Shown here piece after piece: positions 25,547-57,156 of a stretch of 64,000 nt of DNA. Origin of the DNA: Actinomycetota bacterium (lineage in GTDB: Bacteria; Actinomycetota; Acidimicrobiia; IMCC26256; PALSA-610). Location: the NCBI GenBank assembly GCA_003134555.1, contig PLBO01000103.1, forward strand, positions 19,251 through 83,250. Reading direction: 5' to 3'. The position numbers were made by a program, and so were the translations under genes. Within the stretch, counting starts at the first letter, position 1, and every line of letters begins with the position of its first letter. The notes below the pieces were generated by a model. That model saw only the letters and a list, made by a program, of their open reading frames with translations. It had not been told where the DNA came from and did not search any database.

Positions 25547-25589
25547 CACCGCTCCCGCAGGCGTCGCTCACGGCGCTAGTTTCCCCGAG

Positions 25590-27311: not shown

Positions 27312-28487
27312 ATGACCGAACCCGTCTGCGCGCTCGACCTCGCGCGCCTGCGCCGCGACCGCGTCGCGAAGCTCGACGACGCGATGGAGGCCGCCGGCGT
27401 CGACACCGTCGTGCTCTGCGCGCAGCAGAACGTCTCGTACGCAACGGGCACGCGTGTTCCGGCCGCCGACCACGTGCGGGCCTCGTGGTGGCGCGCGGTT
27501 GCGGTGCTCGAGCTGGGCGCACCGTGGCCTCACCTCTACACCGACTTCCCCGAAGGCGCGCCCGACGATCTGCCCGATGAATTCCTGCACCGCGCGATCG
27601 AGGTCGAGACCGCGGCAGGCGCGCGCGAGCTCACGGACAAGATCGGTGGAGGCCGGTTGGCGATCGACGACGCGCCGTTCCCGCTCTGGGACGCGCTCCG
27701 ACCGCGCGAAGTCGTCGACGCGAGCGCGGTGCTCGCGCCCGCGAAGCTTACGAAGACCCCGGACGAGCTCGAATGCATTCGCCAGGCGCAGGCTGTGAAC
27801 GAGCAGGCGATGCGTGCCGTGCGGCCGCTCGCAGTTCCGGGCGCCCGCGCCACCGATCTCTCGGGCGCTTTCCTGCAGGCGATCGCCGAGCTCGGCGCGA
27901 CCGCGAACACCGTCGACCCGGTGTTCCAGGTGATGCCACGGTCGGTTGCCGATGGGCCGTACAGCGTCACCGGCGAACCGGTCTTCCCGATCCCCACCCG
28001 CGCCTCGGAACTGGGTGCGGGCGACGTGATGTGGATCGACTCCGGCATCAACCTACACGGCTACGCGTCGGACTTCGGCGCAACATGGATCGTGGGACGC
28101 GAAGTCGACGACGTCGAACGCGATCAGTTCGCGCGCTGGCGCGCGATCGTCGACCGCGCGTTGCATCGGGTGATGCCGGGTGCGACGGCCGCCGACCTCG
28201 TCGAGGCCGCCGGACTCGATCACGGTCGCCGTCCCTGGCTCTCGTACTTCTACCTGGCGCACGGGATCGGTACCGACAGCGCCGAGATGCCCTTCGTCGG
28301 GACCGACCTCGGCGACGCGTTCGACGCCGCGCTGACGCTGCAGCCCGGCATGGTGCTCGTGTTCGAACCCGTCGTTTGGGACGACGGCCGCGCCGGACAT
28401 CGCTCCGAGGAGATCGTCGCAGTGTCTGCCGACGGGTACGTGCGGCTCTCGGCGCGCGCCGAGCTCGACGAGGGCGCAGCCTCGTGA
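27312..28487 (+). CDS. M24-family metallopeptidase/hydrolase (Xaa-Pro peptidase / creatinase-like)
   Basis: 391 aa. Putative metal ligands are present by eye (WIDSG, ASDFG, AHGIG, VFEPV, SEEIV). ATG lies immediately after the upstream stop. Confidence 0.8.
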   Translation: MTEPVCALDLARLRRDRVAKLDDAMEAAGVDTVVLCAQQNVSYATGTRVPAADHVRASWWRAVAVLELGAPWPHLYTDFPEGAPDDLPDEFLHRAIEVETAAGARELTDKIGGGRLAIDDAPFPLWDALRPREVVDASAVLAPAKLTKTPDELECIRQAQAVNEQAMRAVRPLAVPGARATDLSGAFLQAIAELGATANTVDPVFQVMPRSVADGPYSVTGEPVFPIPTRASELGAGDVMWIDSGINLHGYASDFGATWIVGREVDDVERDQFARWRAIVDRALHRVMPGATAADLVEAAGLDHGRRPWLSYFYLAHGIGTDSAEMPFVGTDLGDAFDAALTLQPGMVLVFEPVVWDDGRAGHRSEEIVAVSADGYVRLSARAELDEGAAS

Positions 28488-29461
28488 GCCGGCTCGCGGC
28501 GTGCATCGACCTGATGGCGCGCGACGCGCTCGACGTGCTCGTGCTCGGACGAGAGGCGAACGCGCGGACCGTCACCGAAGTCTCCCGCCTCTGGCTGGCG
28601 GGGACTCGGCCGTTCTCCCCCGGTTGTGTGGTCGTCCGGCGAACTGCCGCCGTGCATGTTCTCGCCAACACCGACGCGGTCGTCGAGTCTGGCTTCCCCG
28701 TCGAGCGTCTCTACGGCATCACCTGGAATCCGGAAAAGCTGCTCGCCGCGCTCGGTGCGATCGACGGGCTGCAAGACGCCCGGCGCGTCGCGGTCGACGG
28801 GATGACTCCGATGATGAGCGCGCTGCTCGCGGGCGCGATGCCCGCGGCCGAAGTAGTCGACGCCGGACCGTTGTTCGCGGAGCTTTGGAGCGTGCCCGAC
28901 CCAGAGAAGCGCGCGGGTGTCGAGGGCGCGGCGACGGTGGCCGGATGCGGGCTCGGCGCGATGGTCACCGCACTCCGGCCCGACGTGACACCCCGCGAGC
29001 TACGGGGTGTCTGTGCGGCGGCATTCGCGTCGCAAGGCGTCACGACGCCTGCCTTCGAGGCGGTGGCGGCCCCGCTCGACGACAGCTCGTCGACATGGTT
29101 GCCACCCGAGCGCGCCTTCGTCGACGGCGAGCCGGTCGGGTTGCGCGCCGGCGCGCTGCACGACGGCTGGGAGGCATCGCTCGCGCGCACATACGTCGTC
29201 GGGTCGCCGTCGATCGAACAGCCCGCGCCCGCGGGGTGGGACGAGCTCGTGGCCGCGTGCGTCGCAGGCGCGAGCGTGGGCGACCTCCGCCGGCGTGGAG
29301 CCGTCGTCCACGGCGCCGGCCGCGGCGTCGAACCGTGGCCCGACAGCCTGGTCGTGGCGCCCGGGCTCATGATGGCGCTGGAGTACCGCAACGGCGCCAG
29401 ACTCCGCCAGGACATCCTCCGCATCACCGACCGCCACCCGGTGGTCATCACCACCCCCTGA
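28484..29461 (+). CDS. M24-like paralog with degenerate metal site (probable non-catalytic partner)
   Basis: GTG 28484 overlaps the upstream stop (GTGA). It has the creatinase-like N-domain and pita-bread region, but the Asp/Asp ligand positions read LRAGAL / WEASL by eye. Confidence 0.65.
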   Translation: MSRLAACIDLMARDALDVLVLGREANARTVTEVSRLWLAGTRPFSPGCVVVRRTAAVHVLANTDAVVESGFPVERLYGITWNPEKLLAALGAIDGLQDARRVAVDGMTPMMSALLAGAMPAAEVVDAGPLFAELWSVPDPEKRAGVEGAATVAGCGLGAMVTALRPDVTPRELRGVCAAAFASQGVTTPAFEAVAAPLDDSSSTWLPPERAFVDGEPVGLRAGALHDGWEASLARTYVVGSPSIEQPAPAGWDELVAACVAGASVGDLRRRGAVVHGAGRGVEPWPDSLVVAPGLMMALEYRNGARLRQDILRITDRHPVVITTP

Positions 29462-29465
29462 CAAA

Positions 29466-29590
29466 TTTCTTGCCAACAGTTCGCAAGGAAAGTGACCGGC
29501 GGCGTCCGTTTTCTTGCCAACAGTTCGCTGAGAAAGTGACCCCAAGCGCCGGTTTTCCGCGCAACAGTTGCGCGGGAAGCGGGGTTAGGG
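29466..29590. repeat. Three tandem 44-bp-period units with a palindromic core centred on AACAGTT (site A)
   Basis: Core centres lie at 29478, 29522 and 29566. Units 29466-29497 and 29510-29541 are 29/32 identical. The third core is a perfect 19-bp palindrome CCGCGCAACAGTTGCGCGG (29557-29575). The segment is AT-richer than its surroundings and fills the whole gap between convergent genes. Confidence 0.9.
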
Positions 29591-30379
29591 GTTGATCTGG
29601 TTGCGGCCTCGTTCGACGATCTTCATGCGCCGCGACTCGATGCTCGCGGGGTCGAAGCCAGGGCCTTCCCAATCGCGGCTCACCCGGGCCTCGATCTTCC
29701 AGCCTTCGTCGACCGTCGTGCCCGTCACCTCGTCGTAGGTGCGAATCATGCGGCGCACGCCGAGTTGGTCGTTCGACACGATGTCGGCCGCGAGCTTCCG
29801 GCAGTGGGGCAACAGCTCCTCGTGCGGAACCACCTCGTTGACGAGCGACCACTCGTACGCGGTCTGCGCGTCGAGATAGTTGCCCGTGACGCTCATCTGC
29901 TTCGCGCGCGCCACGCCGATGCGCTGCGCGAGCAACACCGTCAGGCCCCAGCCCGGCATCACGCCGACGCGCGCGTGGGTGTCGGCGAAGCGGGCGCGAT
30001 CCGACGCGATGATGAAGTCGCAGTTGAGCGCGACCTCGAAACCGCCGGTCACCGCGACCCCGTTGACCGCGCCGATCAACGGCTTGGTGTGGGGCGGCAG
30101 CGCGCCGCGGAACGTGTCGCGGCTCTCCGCGACTCCGCCGAAGCTCTCGCCTTGCTGCACCTGTCCCGAGCCGAACTCCTTGAGATCGACACCCGCCGAG
30201 AACGCGGGATCGGCGCCTGTGAGGATCAGCACGTCGACGTCGTCGTCGGTGTCGCAGCGCGTGATCGCCGCGGGGAGCTCACGCCGGATGTCGCGATTCA
30301 GCGCGTTCCGCTGATCGGGACGATTCAGCGTGATGACCGCGACCCGGTCGGCGATGTCGATGAGGACGACGTCGCTCAC
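29585..30379 (-). CDS. Enoyl-CoA hydratase/isomerase (crotonase)
   Basis: Motifs GADPAFSAGVDLKEF and GAVNGVAVTGGFEVALNCDF. GTG 30379 overlaps the upstream stop (GTGA). Rare TAA stop at 29585-29587. Confidence 0.88.
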   Translation of the reverse strand: MSDVVLIDIADRVAVITLNRPDQRNALNRDIRRELPAAITRCDTDDDVDVLILTGADPAFSAGVDLKEFGSGQVQQGESFGGVAESRDTFRGALPPHTKPLIGAVNGVAVTGGFEVALNCDFIIASDRARFADTHARVGVMPGWGLTVLLAQRIGVARAKQMSVTGNYLDAQTAYEWSLVNEVVPHEELLPHCRKLAADIVSNDQLGVRRMIRTYDEVTGTTVDEGWKIEARVSRDWEGPGFDPASIESRRMKIVERGRNQINP

Positions 30380-34230: not shown

Positions 34231-36651
34231 TCACGCGTCGTCGCGGGGCGGCGCGATCGCGACGACCCGCTGCAGTCCCCCCGGGCACACCTTCGAGCCA
34301 CCGCCATCGCGTGACGCGGCGCGCACGCCCTGCCCGGGCACGACGAGACACGCGTCGGCGGCGAGGAAGGCGAGCGTGTCGGCGGCCGGCGTCATCGCAA
34401 CCAGAGGTCCGCGCGCCTTGTCGATCTTCGCCGCCTTGAGGCCCGAGCCACCTCGAGTCTGCACCGGGAATTCGTCTACCTCGGTGCGCTTGGCGAAACC
34501 CTGCTCGGTCGCGATCACGACGAGCTCGCCGTCGGCGGCGGCGCACCCGCCGATCACCCGGTCGTCGCCCTTCAGGCGGATGCCGCGGATACCGCCGGCC
34601 GACCGGCCGACCGGGCGGACGTCGCCCTCGGCGAAGCGGATGCCCTGCCCGTTGGCGGAAAGGAGCAACAGCTCGTAGTCGTCCCAACCGGGGAACACGG
34701 CGACGACGCGCTCGTCGGCGGCCAGCTTCATCGCCACGATGCCGTTCTGGCGTCCGGACGCTTCGGTGAACTCGCTGAGCGCAGTGCGCTTCACTCCGCC
34801 CGTCGAGGTCACGAACACGAGGTTCGGGTGATCCTCGTGCAACCGCGCGTCGAGCACGGCCACGACCTGCTCACCGTCGCCGAACTGGAAGAGATTCTGC
34901 GCGGCGCTCAGCTTCTCCTTCGGCAGCTCGTGCACCGTGGCCCGGTACGCGCGCCCGCGGTCGGTGAAGAACAGGAGCCCAGAAAGCGCGGTGGTATCGA
35001 TCGCCTGCGCGACCGCGTCGCGATCGCCCGGGTTCGCGACGAGCGACTTCCGGGTGCGCGCGGGCACGGCGCGCACGTAGCCGCGCGCGGTCACGGTGGT
35101 CACGTAGGGCTCGTCTTCGACGAGCGCGACGACGTCGAGCGCGCCCGCATCGTCGCTCATGATCGGGGTCCGGCGCGGCGCCTTGTGGGCGTCGCGGATG
35201 GCGACGAGCTCCTCCCGGATGACGCCCATCAGCACGTCGTGCTTGGCCAGGATGCCGCGCAGCTGCTTGACCGTCGCCTCGAGCTCCTTGCGTTCCTTGT
35301 CGAGCTCCGCCCGGCCGAGCTGCGTGAGCCGCCCGAGCGGCATGTCGAGGATGTGGTTGGCCTGGATCTCCGAGAAACCGAAGCGCTTGTCCATCAACGC
35401 GCTGCGCGCCGCGGCGCGATCCTTCGACGCGCGGATCGCCTTCACGATCGCGTCGATCATGTCGAGCGCCTTCACCAGGCCCTCGACGATGTGCAGGCGA
35501 TCCTGGGCCTTCTGCAGGCGGAACTTGCTTCGTCGGGTCACGACGACCACTTGATGATCGAGCCAGTGCTGCAGAGCTTCGGAGAGCGTGACCGTTCGGG
35601 GAACGTCGTCGACGAGCGCGACCATGTTGACCGGGAAGGTGCTCTGCGCCGCCGTGTGCTTGAAGAGATTGTTCAGCACGATCTGCGGGTTCGTGTCGGG
35701 ACGAAGCTCGATGACGAGACGGGTCTTCCCCTGCCCGGACTCGTTGCGGATGTCGCGCACGCCGTCGATCTTGCCGGCGAGCACGAGCTCCGTCAGCTTT
35801 CCCGAGATCGCGTCGACGCTCGTCTGGAACGGAACCTCGGTGAGCACGATCGCCTGACCGCCGCGGCGCGGGAGCTCCTCGATCTCGTGGACCGCGCGCA
35901 CGCGGATGGTGCCGCGCCCGGTTCGGAACGCGTCCTTGATCCCGTCGTCACCCATGATGAGGCCGCCGGTCGGGAAGTCGGGACCCTTCACGATGCGCAT
36001 CAGCTCCGAGAGCGTGACGTCGGGCTTGTCGATCAACTTCACGGCCGCGTTGCACACCTCGGCGAGGTTGTGGGGCGGGATGTTGGTGGCCATTCCGACC
36101 GCGATGCCCTGCGCGCCGTTCACCAACAGGTTGGGAAACCGCGCCGGGAGGACGACGGGTTCGGTACGCGAGCCGTCGTAGTTCGGCTCGAAATCGACGG
36201 TTCCCTCGTCGATACCGGCGAGCAGCTCCATCGCGAGCGGCGACAGGCGACACTCGGTGTAGCGCGACGCCGCGGGCGGATCGGACGGCGATCCGAAGTT
36301 CCCGTGCTTGTCGATCAACGGCGCGGTCAGCGAGAAAGGCTGGCCCATCCGGACGAGCGCGTCGTAGATCGCGGTGTCGCCGTGCGGGTGGTAGTTGGCC
36401 ATGACCTCACCGACGACGCGCGCGCACTTGACGAACGGTCGATCGGGCCGGAGGTTCGAGTCGTGCATCGCCCAGAGGATGCGGCGGTGGACGGGCTTCA
36501 ACCCGTCGCGGACGTCGGGTAGCGCGCGCTGGACGATGACGCTCATCGCGTACTCGAGGAACGCGCCCTCGACTTCTTCCTGCAGCGTGCGCGTCGGAAT
36601 CTCCGACGGCGGCTCGAGAGTCAGTTGGTTGGTCGTGGTCCGACGGGCCAT
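34231..36651 (-). CDS. parC: Type IIA topoisomerase subunit A (GyrA/ParC family; ParC-like, no GyrA box seen)
   Basis: 806 aa with EYAMSVIVQRALPDVRDGLKPVHRRILW and a beta-pinwheel C-terminal domain. The region after ...TARGYVRAV lacks a QRRGGKG-type GyrA box. GGAGA Shine-Dalgarno, 12 nt after the subunit B stop. Confidence 0.85.
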   Translation of the reverse strand: MARRTTTNQLTLEPPSEIPTRTLQEEVEGAFLEYAMSVIVQRALPDVRDGLKPVHRRILWAMHDSNLRPDRPFVKCARVVGEVMANYHPHGDTAIYDALVRMGQPFSLTAPLIDKHGNFGSPSDPPAASRYTECRLSPLAMELLAGIDEGTVDFEPNYDGSRTEPVVLPARFPNLLVNGAQGIAVGMATNIPPHNLAEVCNAAVKLIDKPDVTLSELMRIVKGPDFPTGGLIMGDDGIKDAFRTGRGTIRVRAVHEIEELPRRGGQAIVLTEVPFQTSVDAISGKLTELVLAGKIDGVRDIRNESGQGKTRLVIELRPDTNPQIVLNNLFKHTAAQSTFPVNMVALVDDVPRTVTLSEALQHWLDHQVVVVTRRSKFRLQKAQDRLHIVEGLVKALDMIDAIVKAIRASKDRAAARSALMDKRFGFSEIQANHILDMPLGRLTQLGRAELDKERKELEATVKQLRGILAKHDVLMGVIREELVAIRDAHKAPRRTPIMSDDAGALDVVALVEDEPYVTTVTARGYVRAVPARTRKSLVANPGDRDAVAQAIDTTALSGLLFFTDRGRAYRATVHELPKEKLSAAQNLFQFGDGEQVVAVLDARLHEDHPNLVFVTSTGGVKRTALSEFTEASGRQNGIVAMKLAADERVVAVFPGWDDYELLLLSANGQGIRFAEGDVRPVGRSAGGIRGIRLKGDDRVIGGCAAADGELVVIATEQGFAKRTEVDEFPVQTRGGSGLKAAKIDKARGPLVAMTPAADTLAFLAADACLVVPGQGVRAASRDGGGSKVCPGGLQRVVAIAPPRDDA

Positions 36652-36663
36652 CGCGTTGTCTCC

Positions 36664-38664
<2,001 letters not shown>

Positions 38665-50039: not shown

Positions 50040-50766
50040 CCTCGCCGTTGAGGTAGCCGTTCTCGACGATGTGCTGCGCGAGAGCCGCGTACTCGTCGGG
50101 CCGGCCCAGCCGCTTCGGGAACGGAACATTCGCGGCGAAGACGTCGCGCATCGCTTCCGGCACCATCATCATCGGTGGCGTCGCGATCGTTCCGGGCGCG
50201 ATGGTGCAGACCCGCACCCCGACCGACGAGAGGTCGCGCGCGGCGATGATCGTCATCCCTATGACGCCCGCCTTGGCCGAGCCGTAGGCGACCTGACCGA
50301 TCTGCCCTTCGTACCCGGCAATCGACGCGGTGAGCACGCACACGCCGCGCTCGCCACCCTCGTCGGCATCGTTCTTCGCCATCGCCGCCGCCGCCAGCCG
50401 GAGCATGTTGAACGAGCCAACCAGGTTCAGCTCGACGACGCGCCGAAACGCGTCGAGGTCGTGGGGTGTTCCGTCGCGCGCGAGCGTGCGGGCCGCGATC
50501 CCGCCACCACCACAGTGCACGCAGATCGCAAGCCGGCCGCGATCCGCGGCCGCTTCGACCGCGGCGGTCACCTCGCCCTCGGAGGTGACGTCGCAGCGGA
50601 CGAAACGATCCGAGCCCCCCAGTTCAGTCGCGACCGCACGACCGCGCTCCTCCGCGATGTCGGCGACGATCACGGTCGCGCCCGCCGCGTGCAGACGCCG
50701 GGCCGTCGCCTCACCCAGCCCGGAGGCAGCACCCGTTACGAGCGCGACGTTGCCGGCAATTTCCAC
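49999..50766 (-). CDS. SDR, HSD10/3-hydroxyacyl-CoA dehydrogenase type II-like (paralog of 46428..47204)
   Basis: GTG 50766 is preceded by AAAGGAGA. Motifs VTGAASGLGEA, YGSAK and C-terminal NGEVIRLDGAVRFQPK. Confidence 0.85.
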   Translation of the reverse strand: MEIAGNVALVTGAASGLGEATARRLHAAGATVIVADIAEERGRAVATELGGSDRFVRCDVTSEGEVTAAVEAAADRGRLAICVHCGGGGIAARTLARDGTPHDLDAFRRVVELNLVGSFNMLRLAAAAMAKNDADEGGERGVCVLTASIAGYEGQIGQVAYGSAKAGVIGMTIIAARDLSSVGVRVCTIAPGTIATPPMMMVPEAMRDVFAANVPFPKRLGRPDEYAALAQHIVENGYLNGEVIRLDGAVRFQPK

Positions 50767-51815
50767 AGCTCGTCTCCTTTCTCCGCGATGCGGTCGACCA
50801 GCGTTCGTTCTCCCGCGCAGACCACGTACTCGACGTTCCGCAGATGCGAGACCCGCCCGACCTTCTTGCCATCGGGATTGTGGATGCCGATCTGGGCCCC
50901 GACATAGCGCCGAGATTCGAACGCGAGCGTCGCCACGACGCCGCCGCGCGCCCGGCAGGCCGCTTCGAGCGCGTCGATCTCCACCCACGACTCGTTGTTG
51001 TACGACACGACGACGAGCTCGGCGTCGACGTCGCGGATGATGCCCAGGAGCGCGTCCGGCATCGCCCGGCGGTCGTTGAACACGCTCTTGGTCGACGCGT
51101 CGCGCGCGTCGACACGCTTGCAGGCAACTCCGTAGTGCTCGGGCGCGTCCCACGCAACCAGCGTCTCCCACACGTGGTAGTTCGTGAAGTAGCGGTGTTG
51201 GTTGTACGGCGGGTCGAGATACGCGAGGTCGAAGGGCCCCAGAGTTCGCACCGCGTCGACTGCGTCGGCCCGCAGCGCGACTCCGGGACCCGGCACGAAT
51301 TCCGGGACGCGCAGCGCGATCGGCCGGTAGGAGCGATCGGCCCACGCCTTGACGTACGCCATCTGCACGCCGGTCGTGGAGTCGACCCGATCCGCGGCTT
51401 CGATGAGACTCGTCAGCAACAGCGGATACATCCAGCTCTCGCGGTAGTCGCACTCGATCGCGTCGCGCATCGCGTCGATCCGCCGGCCGTTGTCGGGCTG
51501 GAAGAAACGAGACCGAATGCAAAACGTCTCGGTGAAATAGCCGTCGACCCCGGGTCGGTTCGACAGGTCGACGAGCGCGGCTTCGAGTGCTTCGATGTCG
51601 GCCGGCTCGCCGTCGAGCGCGACGTAGCACTCGGCGAACACTTCGGCGTAGCGGGCCGTGTCGACCGCGGTGACGTGCGCACCCCGGCGCTTGAGCTCCT
51701 GGGCGACGCGCGTCGTGCCGGTAAAGAGGTCCAACGCCCGCCGCGCGCCCGCGACCGTCGCGATCGCGCCCAGGACCGGAACCAGCCGTCGTTTCGAACC
51801 GAGGTACTTGATCAC
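50736..51815 (-). CDS. Dam-like (D12 class, alpha-type) N6-adenine DNA methyltransferase, solitary
   Basis: N-terminal IKYLGSKRRL, motif I LDLFTGTT, motif IV LDPPYNQHRY, then VVVSYNN. Start tentatively at GTG 51815. The stop lies 31 nt inside the downstream SDR ORF. Confidence 0.8.
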   Translation of the reverse strand: MIKYLGSKRRLVPVLGAIATVAGARRALDLFTGTTRVAQELKRRGAHVTAVDTARYAEVFAECYVALDGEPADIEALEAALVDLSNRPGVDGYFTETFCIRSRFFQPDNGRRIDAMRDAIECDYRESWMYPLLLTSLIEAADRVDSTTGVQMAYVKAWADRSYRPIALRVPEFVPGPGVALRADAVDAVRTLGPFDLAYLDPPYNQHRYFTNYHVWETLVAWDAPEHYGVACKRVDARDASTKSVFNDRRAMPDALLGIIRDVDAELVVVSYNNESWVEIDALEAACRARGGVVATLAFESRRYVGAQIGIHNPDGKKVGRVSHLRNVEYVVCAGERTLVDRIAEKGDELWKLPATSRS

Positions 51816-54166: not shown

Positions 54167-55354
54167 TCACGGTTGTTGCAGCGCTTCGGGCACCGCGTGG
54201 CGGAACAGCTTGGAGGCGTTCTCCCACGTGACCTTGCGGACGACATCCGCCGGCACGTCGCGCAATGCGGCCGTCGCGTTGGGTTGCGTGTCGGGCCACG
54301 TGGAATCGGCGTGCGGGTAGTCGCTCTCGAGACAGATGCGGTCGACGCCGATGTGGTCTCGGAGCGCGAACGTGGATCCGATGTCGATCGTGCAGAACCA
54401 GAAATTGCGTCGCAGCGCTTCGGTCGGCGAGATGTCGGTGGCCGCCCAACCGTGCGAGCCGACGGCCGAGTGATCGAGCACGTAGTCGATCCGATCGATC
54501 AGCATCGGCACCCAGCTGATGCCGCCTTCCGAGAACGCGATCTTGATCTTCGGAAAGCGGGTGGGAACCTGGGCCCAGAGCCAGTCGGCCGCGGTGACGA
54601 GCGCGTTGACCGGGAACAAGCTGGTGTAGAGCTCGAGCGGCGCACCCGGCGAACGGGCCGCGGTCCACGACGACGAGCCATTGTGCAGGCAGACGACCGT
54701 CTCCGTCTCTTCGCACGCGCGCAGGAACGGGTCCCAGTGCGTATCGATCATCGGCGGGAGCTGCAGGTCGACCGGGTTCTCCGGGAAGCTCACTGCCTTG
54801 AACCCGCGCTCGGCGTTGCGCCGCACGTCGGCGGCCGCGACCTGCGGATCGACCACCCAGGCGAGCTGCAACGGGATCACGCGATCGGGATGCGGCCCGG
54901 CCCACTCGTCTATGTGCCAGGCGTTCCACGCGCGCAACGCCGCCAGTCCGAGCTCCGGATCCTTGCTCTTCGCGAAGATCGTGCCCGCGAACCCGGCGAT
55001 GAGCGAAGGAAAGCAGAGCGACGCCAACACGCCGTCGAGATTCATGTCGGCGACGCGGGCTTCGATGTCGTAACAGCCGCGGCGCATCTCGTCGAAGCGC
55101 GCCGGTTCCATGCTCCACTCGGCCTTGGGCCGGCCCGCGACCGCGTTGAGACCGACCTGCGGGTAGAAGTTGTCCTCGTAGATCCACGTCTCCCGGCCGT
55201 CGTCGAGGGTCACGACGCGGGGCGCTCGCTCCTGCAACGCCGACGGAAGCCGCCCCTCGAAGCAGTGCGCGGGCTCGATCAGGTGGTCGTCGACCGAGAT
55301 GATCGTGTAGTTGCGGACGCGCGGCTCGGGATCCGGAAGGAAGGTCGCGGTCAT
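54167..55354 (-). CDS. Amidohydrolase-2 family protein
   Basis: ATG 55354 overlaps the TetR stop (ATGA). ...ISVDDHLIEP...CLESDYPHADS. Confidence 0.82.
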   Translation of the reverse strand: MTATFLPDPEPRVRNYTIISVDDHLIEPAHCFEGRLPSALQERAPRVVTLDDGRETWIYEDNFYPQVGLNAVAGRPKAEWSMEPARFDEMRRGCYDIEARVADMNLDGVLASLCFPSLIAGFAGTIFAKSKDPELGLAALRAWNAWHIDEWAGPHPDRVIPLQLAWVVDPQVAAADVRRNAERGFKAVSFPENPVDLQLPPMIDTHWDPFLRACEETETVVCLHNGSSSWTAARSPGAPLELYTSLFPVNALVTAADWLWAQVPTRFPKIKIAFSEGGISWVPMLIDRIDYVLDHSAVGSHGWAATDISPTEALRRNFWFCTIDIGSTFALRDHIGVDRICLESDYPHADSTWPDTQPNATAALRDVPADVVRKVTWENASKLFRHAVPEALQQP

Positions 55355-55911
55355 CGGCGGCCGACGCCTTCGATGCAGAAGCGCTGCAGGTAGCGCGCAA
55401 GCTCGTGCGTGTCGGCGACGCGGCCGACCACGACGTCGTCGATACCGTCGAGCAGCACCGCGAACATCGTGCGCGCGTCGCGTTTCGGATCGTCGGAGTC
55501 GATGTAGCGCGCGAGCAGGTCGACGAGCGGGGCCAGCGCGTCGCGCAATTCGTCTTCGTGGAACTCCGTGAGGCGCCGACGCTCTCGCACGAGAACACCC
55601 GCATAGCCGGTCGCTTCCGCGGGCGTGAGCATGTCGAAGAGCTCGAACACGTAGGCGCGCAGGGCGTCGGTTCCGGTGCGCGTGCCGATGCGCTCGGCGA
55701 GGATGTCGGCGCCGATCCGGCTGTCCTCCGCGAGGAGCGCGATGAGCAGGTCGTCCTTGCTGCGGAAGCACGAATAGAACGCCTTGAGCGAAACGCCTGC
55801 CCGCATGGCGAGCTGCGCAACCGTGAAGGCTGCGCTGCCCGTCTCGTTCGCCAAGACCCGGGCCGACGCCACGAGCCGCTGCGGACGGTCGGGCTCTTCC
55901 GAGAACGCCAT
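55351..55911 (-). CDS. TetR-family transcriptional regulator
   Basis: N-terminal HTH FTVAQLAMRAGVSLKAFYSCFRSKDDLL. 186 aa. Confidence 0.88.
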   Translation of the reverse strand: MAFSEEPDRPQRLVASARVLANETGSAAFTVAQLAMRAGVSLKAFYSCFRSKDDLLIALLAEDSRIGADILAERIGTRTGTDALRAYVFELFDMLTPAEATGYAGVLVRERRRLTEFHEDELRDALAPLVDLLARYIDSDDPKRDARTMFAVLLDGIDDVVVGRVADTHELARYLQRFCIEGVGRR

Positions 55912-55935
55912 TCTCCCAGCCTAGACCCCTAGTAA

Positions 55936-56003
55936 TCCACCAAACAGTTTGGCGCGAAAACCGCTCCACGCGCCGGTTTTCCACCAAACAGTTTGGCGCG
56001 AAA
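55936..56003. promoter_or_regulatory. Two identical 24-bp direct repeats, each with a perfect 13-bp palindrome CCAAACAGTTTGG (site B); candidate TetR operators
   Basis: TCCACCAAACAGTTTGGCGCGAAA occurs at 55936-55959 and 55980-56003 (period 44 bp). The repeats lie 25-92 nt upstream of the TetR ATG (55911) and directly after the TAA stop of the thiolase-like gene (56011-56013). Confidence 0.75.
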
Positions 56004-56010
56004 TGGGGGG

Positions 56011-57156
56011 TTAGGCGGGCTGGGAGCGGAGGATGCCCATCGCGAAGTACTGGGCGCCGCCGCCGTAGGCCTGGGCGAGCGCGGTGCGCGCGCCGTCGAC
56101 CTGATGCTCACCGGCGAGCCCCCGCACCTGGAGCGCGGCCTCGGCGAACCGCAGCATCCCCGACGCGCCGATCGGGTTCGACGACAACACGCCGCCCGAC
56201 GCGTTCACCGGGAACGAGCCGGTCAGCTCGGTGTCGCCGCTCTCGACCATCTTCCAGCCCTCGCCGGGGCCGGCGATGTCGTGACCCTCGAGCCACATCG
56301 GCTCGTACCAGCTGAAGGGCACGTACAGCTCGGCGACGTCGATCTCCTGACGCGGAACACTGATCCCGGCCTGGCGGTACACGTCGTGCGCGCACTCCAC
56401 GCCCGCGAGCGGGCGAACGGGATCGCGCCCGGGGAAGGCACCGAGCTCGCTGCGGACGGCCGTCGCCGCGACCCACGCGGCCGGCTTCGACGCGCGCTTG
56501 CCGTTCGCCTCGTTGGTGAGCACGACCGCGCACGCGCCGTCGGACGACGGGCACGACTCGAGGAACCGCAGCGGGTCCCACAACATCGCCGATTCCTTCA
56601 CCTTCTCGATGCTGATGTCGGCCAGTTTCAGGTGCGCGTAGGGATTCTTGAGCGCGTTGAGGCGGTCTTTCACCGCGACCTGCCAGCCGATGTACTCGGG
56701 CGCGCCGGTCTTCTCGATGTACGCGCGGATCCACGGCGCGAACGCGCCGCCGGCACCGATGCCGCGACTGCGCCCGCCCGCCAGACCCCACTGCGCGTTG
56801 CCCTCGCTCTGCTTCTCCCACGAGATCGCGAGCACCCGTTCGTGGATGCGCGACTCGACGAGGTGCGCACCGACGATGAACGTCGAACCGCCGACGCTGC
56901 CCGCGGTGTGCACCCGCAGCATCGGCTTGCCCGCGCCGCCCAGCGCGTCGGCGAGGAACAGCTCCGGCTGCACGATCCCTTCGAACGCGTCGGGAGCCTT
57001 ACCGATGACGATCGCGTCGATGTCGGCCCAGGTGCACTCCGCGTCGTCGAGCGCCCGCGTCGCCGCCTCGCGCAACAACCCGGGGATCGAGACGTCGTCG
57101 CGCCGCTTCTTGTGGTGCGTCTGCCCGACGCCGATGACCGCGCACTGTTCCGCCAT
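56011..57156 (-). CDS. Thiolase-fold (SCP-x/Ltp-like) protein lacking the canonical Cys nucleophile
   Basis: ATG 57156 with a GGAGGG Shine-Dalgarno. MAEQCAVIGVGQT... The expected NxxC(A/S)(S/G)G position reads VHTAGSVGGST. C-terminal GGVLSSNPIGASG has Asn where His is expected. TAA stop. Confidence 0.8.
   Translation of the reverse strand: MAEQCAVIGVGQTHHKKRRDDVSIPGLLREAATRALDDAECTWADIDAIVIGKAPDAFEGIVQPELFLADALGGAGKPMLRVHTAGSVGGSTFIVGAHLVESRIHERVLAISWEKQSEGNAQWGLAGGRSRGIGAGGAFAPWIRAYIEKTGAPEYIGWQVAVKDRLNALKNPYAHLKLADISIEKVKESAMLWDPLRFLESCPSSDGACAVVLTNEANGKRASKPAAWVAATAVRSELGAFPGRDPVRPLAGVECAHDVYRQAGISVPRQEIDVAELYVPFSWYEPMWLEGHDIAGPGEGWKMVESGDTELTGSFPVNASGGVLSSNPIGASGMLRFAEAALQVRGLAGEHQVDGARTALAQAYGGGAQYFAMGILRSQPA

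Follow-up and report, generated by a model that had tools for sequence, protein, structure and literature searches.

Phased head-to-tail palindromes beside stop codons in uncultured soil Actinomycetota: a probable low-copy, REP-like or MITE-like repeat family

The MIRU-VNTR of Mycobacterium tuberculosis are tandem repeats of 40-100 bp in intergenic regions whose unit number varies between relatives; MIRUs are non-palindromic and contain small ORFs which overlap with the genes on either side. Plasmid centromeres such as sopC of the F plasmid are built from head-to-tail repeats of ~43-44 bp, each with an inverted repeat, and form one long array near the par genes. Palindromes are also the typical operators of TetR regulators. 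MITEs such as Correia/NEMIS and RPE are small, non-coding, dispersed elements with inverted ends, which show presence/absence polymorphism and may supply stop codons to neighbouring genes. The REP and BIME elements of Proteobacteria are extragenic imperfect palindromes of ~35 nt which lie in clusters downstream of genes or between convergent genes, differ in presence and number among related genomes, and form hairpins with compensatory changes; the roles proposed for REPs are in mRNA 3'-end stability and in termination (PMC3733652, PMC3337134). A GTAG or CGTC end tag defines two REP superfamilies (PMC3733652). TRIT is a conserved palindrome of an actinobacterial lineage which lies at or overlaps the stop codon, is bidirectional and does without canonical U-tract logic; reports of it are confined to Mycobacterium, where a genome has 147 copies, and periodic arrays were not described (PMC3152330). 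TRIT marks the well-defined 3' ends of some mRNAs (PMC3384566).

In this work we analyzed a stretch of 64,000 nucleotides, referred to as the window, in which a preliminary description had flagged a periodic palindrome array between two convergent genes. This array, here named U, is composed of three head-to-tail 44-bp units which occupy the 123-nt gap 29462-29584 between the two stop codons:

29459..29461, plus strand: TGA stop of the M24-like gene (28484-29461), with a CCC codon before the stop, 4 nt ahead of U1
29466..29509, plus strand: unit U1, imperfect palindrome TTTCTTGCC-AACAGTT-CGCAAGGAAA at 29466-29491, then an 18-nt linker
29510..29553, plus strand: unit U2, with a degraded right arm (CGCTGAGAAA)
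29554..29584, plus strand: terminal unit U3, TTTCCGCGC-AACAGTT-GCGCGGGAAG and the G-run GCGGGG, directly abutting the hydratase stop
29585..29587, minus strand: TAA stop of the enoyl-CoA hydratase gene (29585-30379), with a CCC codon before the stop, adjoining the G-run of U3 and reading TTA on the plus strand

The AACAGTT cores lie at 29475-81, 29519-25 and 29563-69, and the exact 44-bp spacing of their centres (29478, 29522 and 29566) that had been claimed is borne out both by these positions and by TRF, which reported a 44-bp-period array at 29466-29569 (2.4 copies) with a score of 122, the top score in the window. The remaining details of that description stood up equally well. Units U1 and U2, given as 29/32 identical, do differ at 3 of 32 positions (AAG versus TGA) and are 80% identical over 44 nt; the perfect 19-bp palindrome of U3 is present at 29557-29575 in a 9+1+9 arrangement, CCGCGCAAC-A-GTTGCGCGG; the array is indeed richer in AT than its surroundings, with 58.4% GC versus 73.6% and 67.8% in its flanks and 68.7% in the window; and it fills the stop-to-stop gap between the M24-like and crotonase (hydratase) genes, from the TGA at 29459-61 to the TTA at 29585-87.

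The heptamer AACAGTT occurs eight times in the window, where 0.94 occurrences would be expected, and none of 100 shuffles reached this count. Three of the copies are in coding sequence and have no flanking arms; the other five belong to array U and to a second array, V (55934-56010), which had been overlooked in the preliminary description and has two units with a period of 44 bp (AACAGTT at 55943 and 55987):

55351..55911, minus strand: TetR/AcrR gene, with array V in its upstream region (context only)
55934..55977, plus strand: unit V1, AATCCACCA-AACAGTT-TGGCGCGAAA and linker, 23 nt from the TetR start codon and overlapping the presumed TetR promoter
55978..56010, plus strand: unit V2, TTTCCACCA-AACAGTT-TGGCGCGAAA and the G-run TGGGGGG, running up to the stop of the thiolase-like gene
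56011..56013, minus strand: TAA stop of the thiolase-like (Thiolase_C_1) gene (56011-57156)

All five units of the window match TTTC-N5-AACAGTT-N6-GAAA in the same orientation. The similarity of about 80% between 29546-29590 and 55970-56016 which had been estimated by eye survived proper alignment, 37 of 47 aligned columns being identical (79%), with a local alignment score of 27 for the U/V segment versus a maximum of 13 among 3000 random window segments. It had also been remarked that the shared GGGGTTAGG includes the stop codon, and this proved to be a wider property, as TAA stops and CCC as the last codon are strongly over-represented in genes adjacent to arrays (see below). A search of a plasmid collection with the window gave no meaningful match, and hence no sign that the window is a known plasmid.

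The distribution of the element was addressed with the two-unit pattern AACAGTT-N6-GAA-N20-TTC-N5-AACAGTT, which has 20 specified bases and for which ~1 chance match is expected in the 596 Gb genome collection. Among genome contigs 19 stretches matched, 18 of them in eight MAGs whose labels read Actinomycetota, Actinomycetes or Acidimicrobiia, with one to six loci of strict tandem matches per MAG. Twenty metagenome contigs matched as well, of which 16 are high-GC soil contigs carrying 15 distinct arrays (two being duplicates of each other). A Prevotella repeat (L017) with a 44-bp period and another symmetry, TAACA-GTT-TGTTA, was set aside as a chance match, and so were the low-GC contigs L032, L036 and L041. 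Viral contigs yielded a single, unrelated low-GC match to the two-unit pattern (L045, the same as L036) and none to the 20-base consensus unit. A genome-wide pattern search had been proposed in the preliminary description; the scans of public genomes and metagenomes produced 34 further arrays. Together with the two in the window these make 36 arrays of two to four units each, which could be aligned in register and comprise 85 distinct units; if loci found through orthology are included, arrays have one to five units, arranged head to tail.

Palindrome and HMM scans of ~400 kb of array flanks detected no further arrays and no solitary units, which suggests that the family is low-copy; the one solitary unit that is known (L058/L059) was found only through orthology. 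The window organism is related to the Acidimicrobiia MAG SMAG_U4302, with syntenic orthologues 81-85% identical, and the sources of the TetR and hydratase homologues label them Acidimicrobiia or Actinomycetota. In the window as a whole no match to an Rfam family attained the gathering score, the flagged locus giving only chance-level matches at E>2, and neither array locus showed a sigma-70-like promoter. A literature search with the unit sequence returned unrelated primers only, and full-text searches that combined Actinobacteria with REP and RAYT, or with tandem palindromic terminators, retrieved nothing relevant. The family is apparently undescribed and specific to a lineage of uncultured, high-GC soil Actinomycetota of the Acidimicrobiia type.

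The family unit is an imperfect palindrome of ~35 nt, CCGrwwTTCC-NNCC-AAC-A-GTT-GGNN-GGGAAwyCGG, with ~17 nt on each side of a central A, and a linker of ~9 nt beyond the palindrome completes the 44-nt unit (45 bp in some arrays). Some members elsewhere (L018, L016 and L029) have a small GC hairpin and T4-5 in the linker. At the outer ends of the arrays there is a C-run, in the first left arm, and a G-run, in the last right arm, and these touch or overlap the flanking stop codons. We examined the structure in the alignment of 85 units with a symmetric 17-pair model and 500 shuffles. Standard pairs were found in 69.8% of the cells versus 65.8±0.8 in the shuffles (0/500 as high), and in 33-47% when partners were slid by 1-3 columns; changes on both sides of a pair were found in 109 cells versus 77±6 in the shuffles. 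In a separate permutation of the right arms, 333 Watson-Crick pairs were counted versus 273±9 after permutation. The stem types TGCC/GGCA, TCCC/GGGA, CACC/GGTG, TTGCC/GGCAA and CGCGC/GCGCG recur in different genomes. The potential to form a hairpin is kept by compensatory changes. The unit owes its direction to two marks: an A at the centre, which 81 of the 85 units have, and a T·G pair at ±10, which 55 of the 85 have and which is in no case mirrored. It should be noted that the invariance of AAC-GTT is partly due to ascertainment, since the search pattern required the core, and that the cores GACTGTT and ATCTGTT are present in arrays reached via protein orthology.

The plus-strand RNA of array U folds into one long hairpin of U1 and U2 followed by a hairpin of U3 (MFE -64.1 kcal/mol, z=-3.96), while the minus-strand fold is less exceptional (z=-1.9); two neighbouring units can fold together in this way because each is near-palindromic. 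Fold energies showed no preference for the transcribed strand (11/18, p=0.42), and the G·U count (48) compared with the A·C count (85) likewise does not favour the strand that reads AACAGUU.

All 36 arrays are intergenic. In the 29 for which the context could be classified there were 11 stop/start, nine stop/stop, seven start/stop and two start/start arrangements, so that 27 of 29 abut a stop codon. Divergent contexts are depleted in this set (p=0.013), so that divergent promoter regions are avoided. The gap between array and stop codon is mostly 0-8 nt, the array sometimes overlapping the last codon, and downstream start codons are tens to hundreds of nucleotides away. TAA stops were present in 12 of 32 array-adjacent genes versus 17 of the 327 remaining genes at those loci (odds ratio 10.9, p=6e-7), and CCC was the last codon in 10 of 32 versus 7 of 327; part of these counts comes from orthologous sites and is thus not independent. 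The enrichment of TAA and CCC points to element ends which overlap or shape the ends of genes. One could speculate that a TA target-site duplication is the source of the TAA excess, yet several arrays abut a TGA without TA. A Pfam scan of 30 genes beside 19 arrays revealed no common theme; the neighbours include RecO/UppS, a class I aminoacyl-tRNA synthetase, GlnA (glutamine synthetase), PGI, WhiB, a histidine kinase, PilB (pilus ATPase), ComEA, MerR, luciferase-like oxygenases, thiolases, amidohydrolases and hydratases. With respect to the upstream gene, arrays occur in both orientations (11 versus 7).

The dynamics of the element could be followed at orthologous sites. The preliminary description had suggested that the intergenic region of array U be compared in related genomes, and this was done via hydratase orthologues with conserved synteny at the hydratase/M24 convergent site, which holds 0, 1, 3, 3 or 5 units:

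Window, hydratase/M24 site: 3 units
L058/L059, hydratase identity 92%: a solitary unit, in a gap of 36 nt
L060, hydratase identity 91%: 3 units, whose centres are T, A and T
L061, hydratase identity 89%: 5 units of 45 bp
L062, hydratase identity 86%: no unit, 10-nt gap

Both stop codons are at identical aligned positions in all of the loci compared, indicating that the element sits exactly between two pre-existing stops. Since close relatives carry no unit or a single one, any function of the array at this site is not essential. The reverse situation was found elsewhere in the window, where a site lacks the element which is present in SMAG_U4302:

25547..25589, no strand: empty site; the carbonic anhydrase and dienelactone hydrolase genes are separated by 43 nt here, and a 4-unit array occupies the orthologous gap of SMAG_U4302 (L007)

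The flanking carbonic anhydrase and dienelactone hydrolase orthologues of the window and L007 are 85% and 81% identical. MAG BP_122 carries near-identical 2-unit arrays at two separate loci (L009 and L021). At the 3' end of the aminoacyl-tRNA synthetase gene (L011, L020) and between uppS and recO (L012, L023) arrays are present at orthologous sites in two species each; such arrays differ in unit number or orientation, the uppS-recO pair being in opposite orientations.

These data make it probable that the arrays represent a lineage-specific, low-copy family of dispersed palindromic repeats of the REP/BIME type (or MITE type) which expands and contracts in tandem. The element would have been copied to new intergenic sites, and its units would then have been gained or lost through slippage or unequal exchange between repeats. 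Copies would survive only right after stop codons, where they harm neither coding sequence nor promoters. Being transcribed as part of the 3' UTR, the hairpins would probably constitute 3'-end structures, by analogy with REPs and TRIT, and could shield the mRNA from exonucleases or damp read-through between convergent genes, as has been proposed for both. The enzyme which copies the element probably recognises a folded single strand, as the maintenance of the hairpin together with the directional marks (the centre A and the T·G pair) suggests that a folded single strand is what the copier, or another user, sees. Such 3'-end hairpins, which recall TRIT, would probably be a by-product of the repeat family. 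As a counterpoint to a mobile repeat, the retention of sites across species and the conservation of the unit could mean a selected function.

REPs are resembled in several properties: these are short palindromes with a stem-loop, extragenic and downstream of coding regions, clustered, polymorphic between relatives, and with compensatory changes in the hairpin. The differences concern organization, conservation and number. Units here follow one another head to tail at a constant period of 44-45 bp, whereas REPs form inverted doublets or the alternating units of BIMEs; the loop is the most conserved part here and the stem is variable; and the family appears low-copy, with one to six strict tandem matches per MAG versus tens to hundreds of REPs per genome, and resides in an actinobacterial lineage rather than in Proteobacteria. 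The tags GTAG, CTAC, CGTC or GACG were each found in only 3-6 of the 85 units, at scattered positions. A phmmer search of the six-frame ORFs from 402 kb surrounding the arrays with E. coli RayT as the single query, which is a weak test, gave a best E of 0.35, and none of the 30 Pfam-scanned array neighbours is a transposase. Nor are the arrays REPINs, in which two inverted REPs make up one long hairpin, as their units all point the same way, head to tail, sharing the centre A and the side of the T·G. The REP/MITE-like family which the preliminary description had considered is therefore upheld as regards dispersal and polymorphism, with the 34 further arrays, but not as regards a canonical REP: because it appears low-copy, lacks the REP tags and no RAYT gene was found in the regions searched, we regard the family as REP-like.

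MITEs are resembled in that the element is small, non-coding and dispersed, has inverted ends (the C-run and the G-run), is polymorphic for presence and absence and may supply stop codons to its neighbours. The interior differs, being a tandem array of variable length; no target-site duplication was definable in the comparison of filled and empty sites (L007 versus the window), and no parent IS was identified. With MIRU-VNTR the arrays share an intergenic position and a unit number which varies between relatives, a resemblance in behaviour only that implies no sequence relationship. MIRUs differ in their lack of palindromes and in their ORFs, whereas each unit here is a hairpin, the period of 44 bp is not divisible by three, and the variation is between species-level relatives. 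The F-plasmid sopC repeats have nearly the same length, head-to-tail arrangement and inverted repeats, but sopC is a single long plasmid array, whereas the present arrays are many, short and chromosomal, with unrelated neighbours and covarying stems. TRIT, which could be compared by description, is matched in its palindromic nature, actinobacterial host, bidirectionality, lack of canonical U-tract logic, confinement to one lineage and stop-codon position, the arrays too occupying a narrow window at the stop; it is unlike the present family in that the latter is much rarer per genome, is organized in 44-bp arrays and is hosted outside Mycobacterium.

This likeness raises the alternative that the arrays are a selected 3'-end module of the TRIT kind, which would end or insulate transcription in both directions just past the stop, with extra units adding efficiency and dispersal being secondary; a protein reading the invariant loop and the stem base would perhaps be an optional part of it. 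The narrow distance to the stop, with occasional overlap of the last codon, would suit such a module, as would the nine of 29 arrays lying between convergent genes with only two in divergent regions, a near-palindrome able to work in either direction, conservation of core and flanks between species while the stem covaries, and retention at orthologous sites in different species. TRIT itself shows the same combination of palindrome, narrow stop position, bidirectionality and restriction to one lineage (PMC3152330). A terminator or roadblock module was also among the candidates of the preliminary description, and has the closeness to stops and the depletion from divergent regions on its side, with the missing U-tract and the array-free relatives against it. 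We nevertheless hold a selected module to be rather unlikely. Neither locus has a hairpin-plus-U-tract terminator, terminator-like sites numbering zero at 29200-29900 and zero at 55700-56300. The same convergent site holds no unit or just one in close relatives, and one TetR orthologue has no array; the mixed orientation and the fold energies without transcribed-strand preference also argue against it, and the density of arrays is too low for a general terminator. Even for TRIT, predictions of this type overlap only 2-4% of the 3' ends mapped by Term-seq in M. tuberculosis (bioRxiv 10.1101/2022.06.01.494293). A further proposal, for which we see a small chance, is that the unit is the cis element of a clade-specific system, its hairpin (invariant loop, T·G mismatch, TAA-CCCC ... 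GGGG-TTA ends) being recognised as folded ssDNA or RNA by a dedicated enzyme. Such an enzyme might be a new HUH-type or other mobiliser which targets stop codons, or a factor which ends transcription or translation-coupled events at the stop, with unit number tuning the effect on convergent genes.

Two further readings place a protein on duplex DNA. In one, the units would be phased targets of one dedicated DNA-binding protein, for instance a roadblock or a nucleoid protein, with four helical turns per unit placing all sites on the same face of the helix. The invariant AAC-A-GTT centre, the TTCC/GGAA flanks at fixed distances and the 44-45 bp period of all arrays agree with this, and plasmid centromeres like F sopC share the design. 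The core invariance is partly ascertainment, however, with GACTGTT and ATCTGTT cores occurring in orthologous arrays; stem positions covary rather than stay conserved; the conserved T·G asymmetry would be meaningless in duplex DNA; an exact period is expected from recent tandem duplication without selection; and the number of units ranges from 0 to 5 at one orthologous site, all of which makes phased duplex sites very improbable. In the other reading the arrays are operators of the TetR/AcrR regulator encoded at 55351-55911, with array V serving autoregulation and array U as a remote site. What speaks for it is the position of array V, 23 nt upstream of the TetR start and overlapping the presumed promoter, and the presence of arrays upstream of TetR orthologues at 95%, 91% and 83% identity, one of which has a different upstream gene. 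TetR-upstream arrays were thus found in four lineages and are absent in a fifth: the orthologue at 82% identity (L054/L055) has no array, although its TCTAKGCTGGGAGA-ATG leader is conserved. Orthologous arrays have wholly different stems (e.g., GCGCCAAAC versus TTTGCCAAC), three of them (95%, 91% and 83%) having differing stem types and two a 45-bp period; array U faces no start codon; none of the 30 scanned neighbour genes at 19 other arrays is a TetR; and 34 other arrays adjoin unrelated genes. The remote TetR sites which the preliminary description had listed as a candidate were accordingly not borne out, and operator function as an explanation of the family was rejected as scarcely credible, although array V may influence the TetR promoter which it overlaps.

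If the reading as a dispersed, REP-like repeat family is correct, it brings an actinobacterial member, of the Acidimicrobiia type, to the few interspersed palindromic repeats on record for bacteria, knowledge of which comes mostly from Proteobacteria. Its unusual traits are the strictly phased head-to-tail arrays, a loop and one mismatch which are kept while the stem drifts, and the ten-fold excess of TAA stops, with the final CCC codon, at neighbouring genes. As the pattern parallels that of TRIT, which is itself unexplained, it may help to explain how 3' ends are marked in high-GC actinobacteria, which lack classical terminators.

For annotation, the arrays should not be labelled operators or CRISPRs. 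A CRISPR array was rejected on the basis of spacers, which here are 18 nt between 26-nt cores (~9 nt beyond the 35-nt palindrome) and mutually similar, versus the ~26-72 nt unique spacers expected; one to five units per array and many loci per genome do not fit either. Integron attC sites were discarded as well, since cassettes are absent and the core departs from RYYYAAC/GTTRRRY. Variation in unit number between related genomes may complicate short-read assembly at the arrays. Strain-level VNTR behaviour was also set aside, as three of three independent assemblies of the same strain carry 3 units each.

Genes that border the arrays of 44-bp AACAGTT-centred palindromes differ from other genes in how they end. 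Across the gene ends of all loci, a TAA stop closes 12 of the 32 array-adjacent genes as against 5% of genes elsewhere, and CCC is the final codon in 10 of these 32 as against 2% elsewhere. Examples of array-adjacent gene ends in the window are the following:
29456-29461, gene end adjacent to an array
29585-29590, gene end adjacent to an array
56011-56016, gene end adjacent to an array

At L052, one of the loci carrying an orthologue of the TetR gene, GCTAACCC occurs twice (GCTAACCCAGAGCTAACCCC) between the thiolase TGA and the first unit (1375-1405), and this duplication ahead of the first unit suggests that TAACCCC is part of the element end. The last codon and stop of the adjacent gene may be supplied or reshaped by the element, or the element may target TA in stop codons.

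The centre base of the units is not uniform. In four arrays from other genomes or metagenome contigs (L007, from the Acidimicrobiia MAG SMAG_U4302, L013, L019, and L034) the last unit has T at its centre (AACTGTT) and the other units have A, while at L060 (10790-10908), which carries the orthologous hydratase site of the flagged array, the centres alternate T, A, T. Because T-centred units occur among A-centred ones, single units may invert, or arrays may be assembled from units of both orientations. An intergenic 44-bp tandem repeat of about seven units (unit TCTAACAGTTTGTTACGAAAAATACAGCCTTAGTTGTTCTTCTT) located upstream of a gene in the Prevotella MAG contig CAKQSF010000004.1 (L017, 2290-2640) also matched the search pattern; it was judged to be unrelated, having the symmetry TAACA-GTT-TGTTA and a GC content of 45%.

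Immediately 5' of the TetR ATG lies GGTCTAGGCTGGGAGA (window 55912-55933, minus strand), which is kept upstream of TetR in all orthologues (L049, L050, L052, and L054), array present or absent, the L054 version being TCTATGCTTGGGAGA. Since TAGGCT, which matches the actinobacterial -10 form TANNNT, is only 6 nt 5' of the ATG, the sequence suggests a TetR transcript that is leaderless or has a very short leader. At the TetR orthologue lacking an array (L054, 9960-9990, and L055), about 5 kb of other genes, including an MFS transporter, GH30, and PNPOx, separate the thiolase from TetR. The short gap upstream of TetR holds TTCCACGTTGGCGCG, which resembles the repeat unit minus its centre CAAACAGT and may be what remains of a palindrome that has been lost.

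The flagged array has a minus-strand pair of GyrB-like (650 aa) and GyrA-like (806 aa) genes (window 34231-38616) a few kb away, and this pair adjoins a PAS-GGDEF-EAL gene. This order is kept in L058, L060, and L062, which are among the loci with the orthologous hydratase site; in L060 and L062 the genes are called as several separate pieces, perhaps because the assemblies contain frameshifts. The window also encodes a Dam-like N6-adenine methyltransferase (PF02086, MethyltransfD12; 50736-51815, minus strand) without a visible restriction partner; in all orthologous loci (L050, L052, and L054) too, it lies within a conserved cluster that comprises P450, alcohol dehydrogenase, amidohydrolase, and SDR genes.
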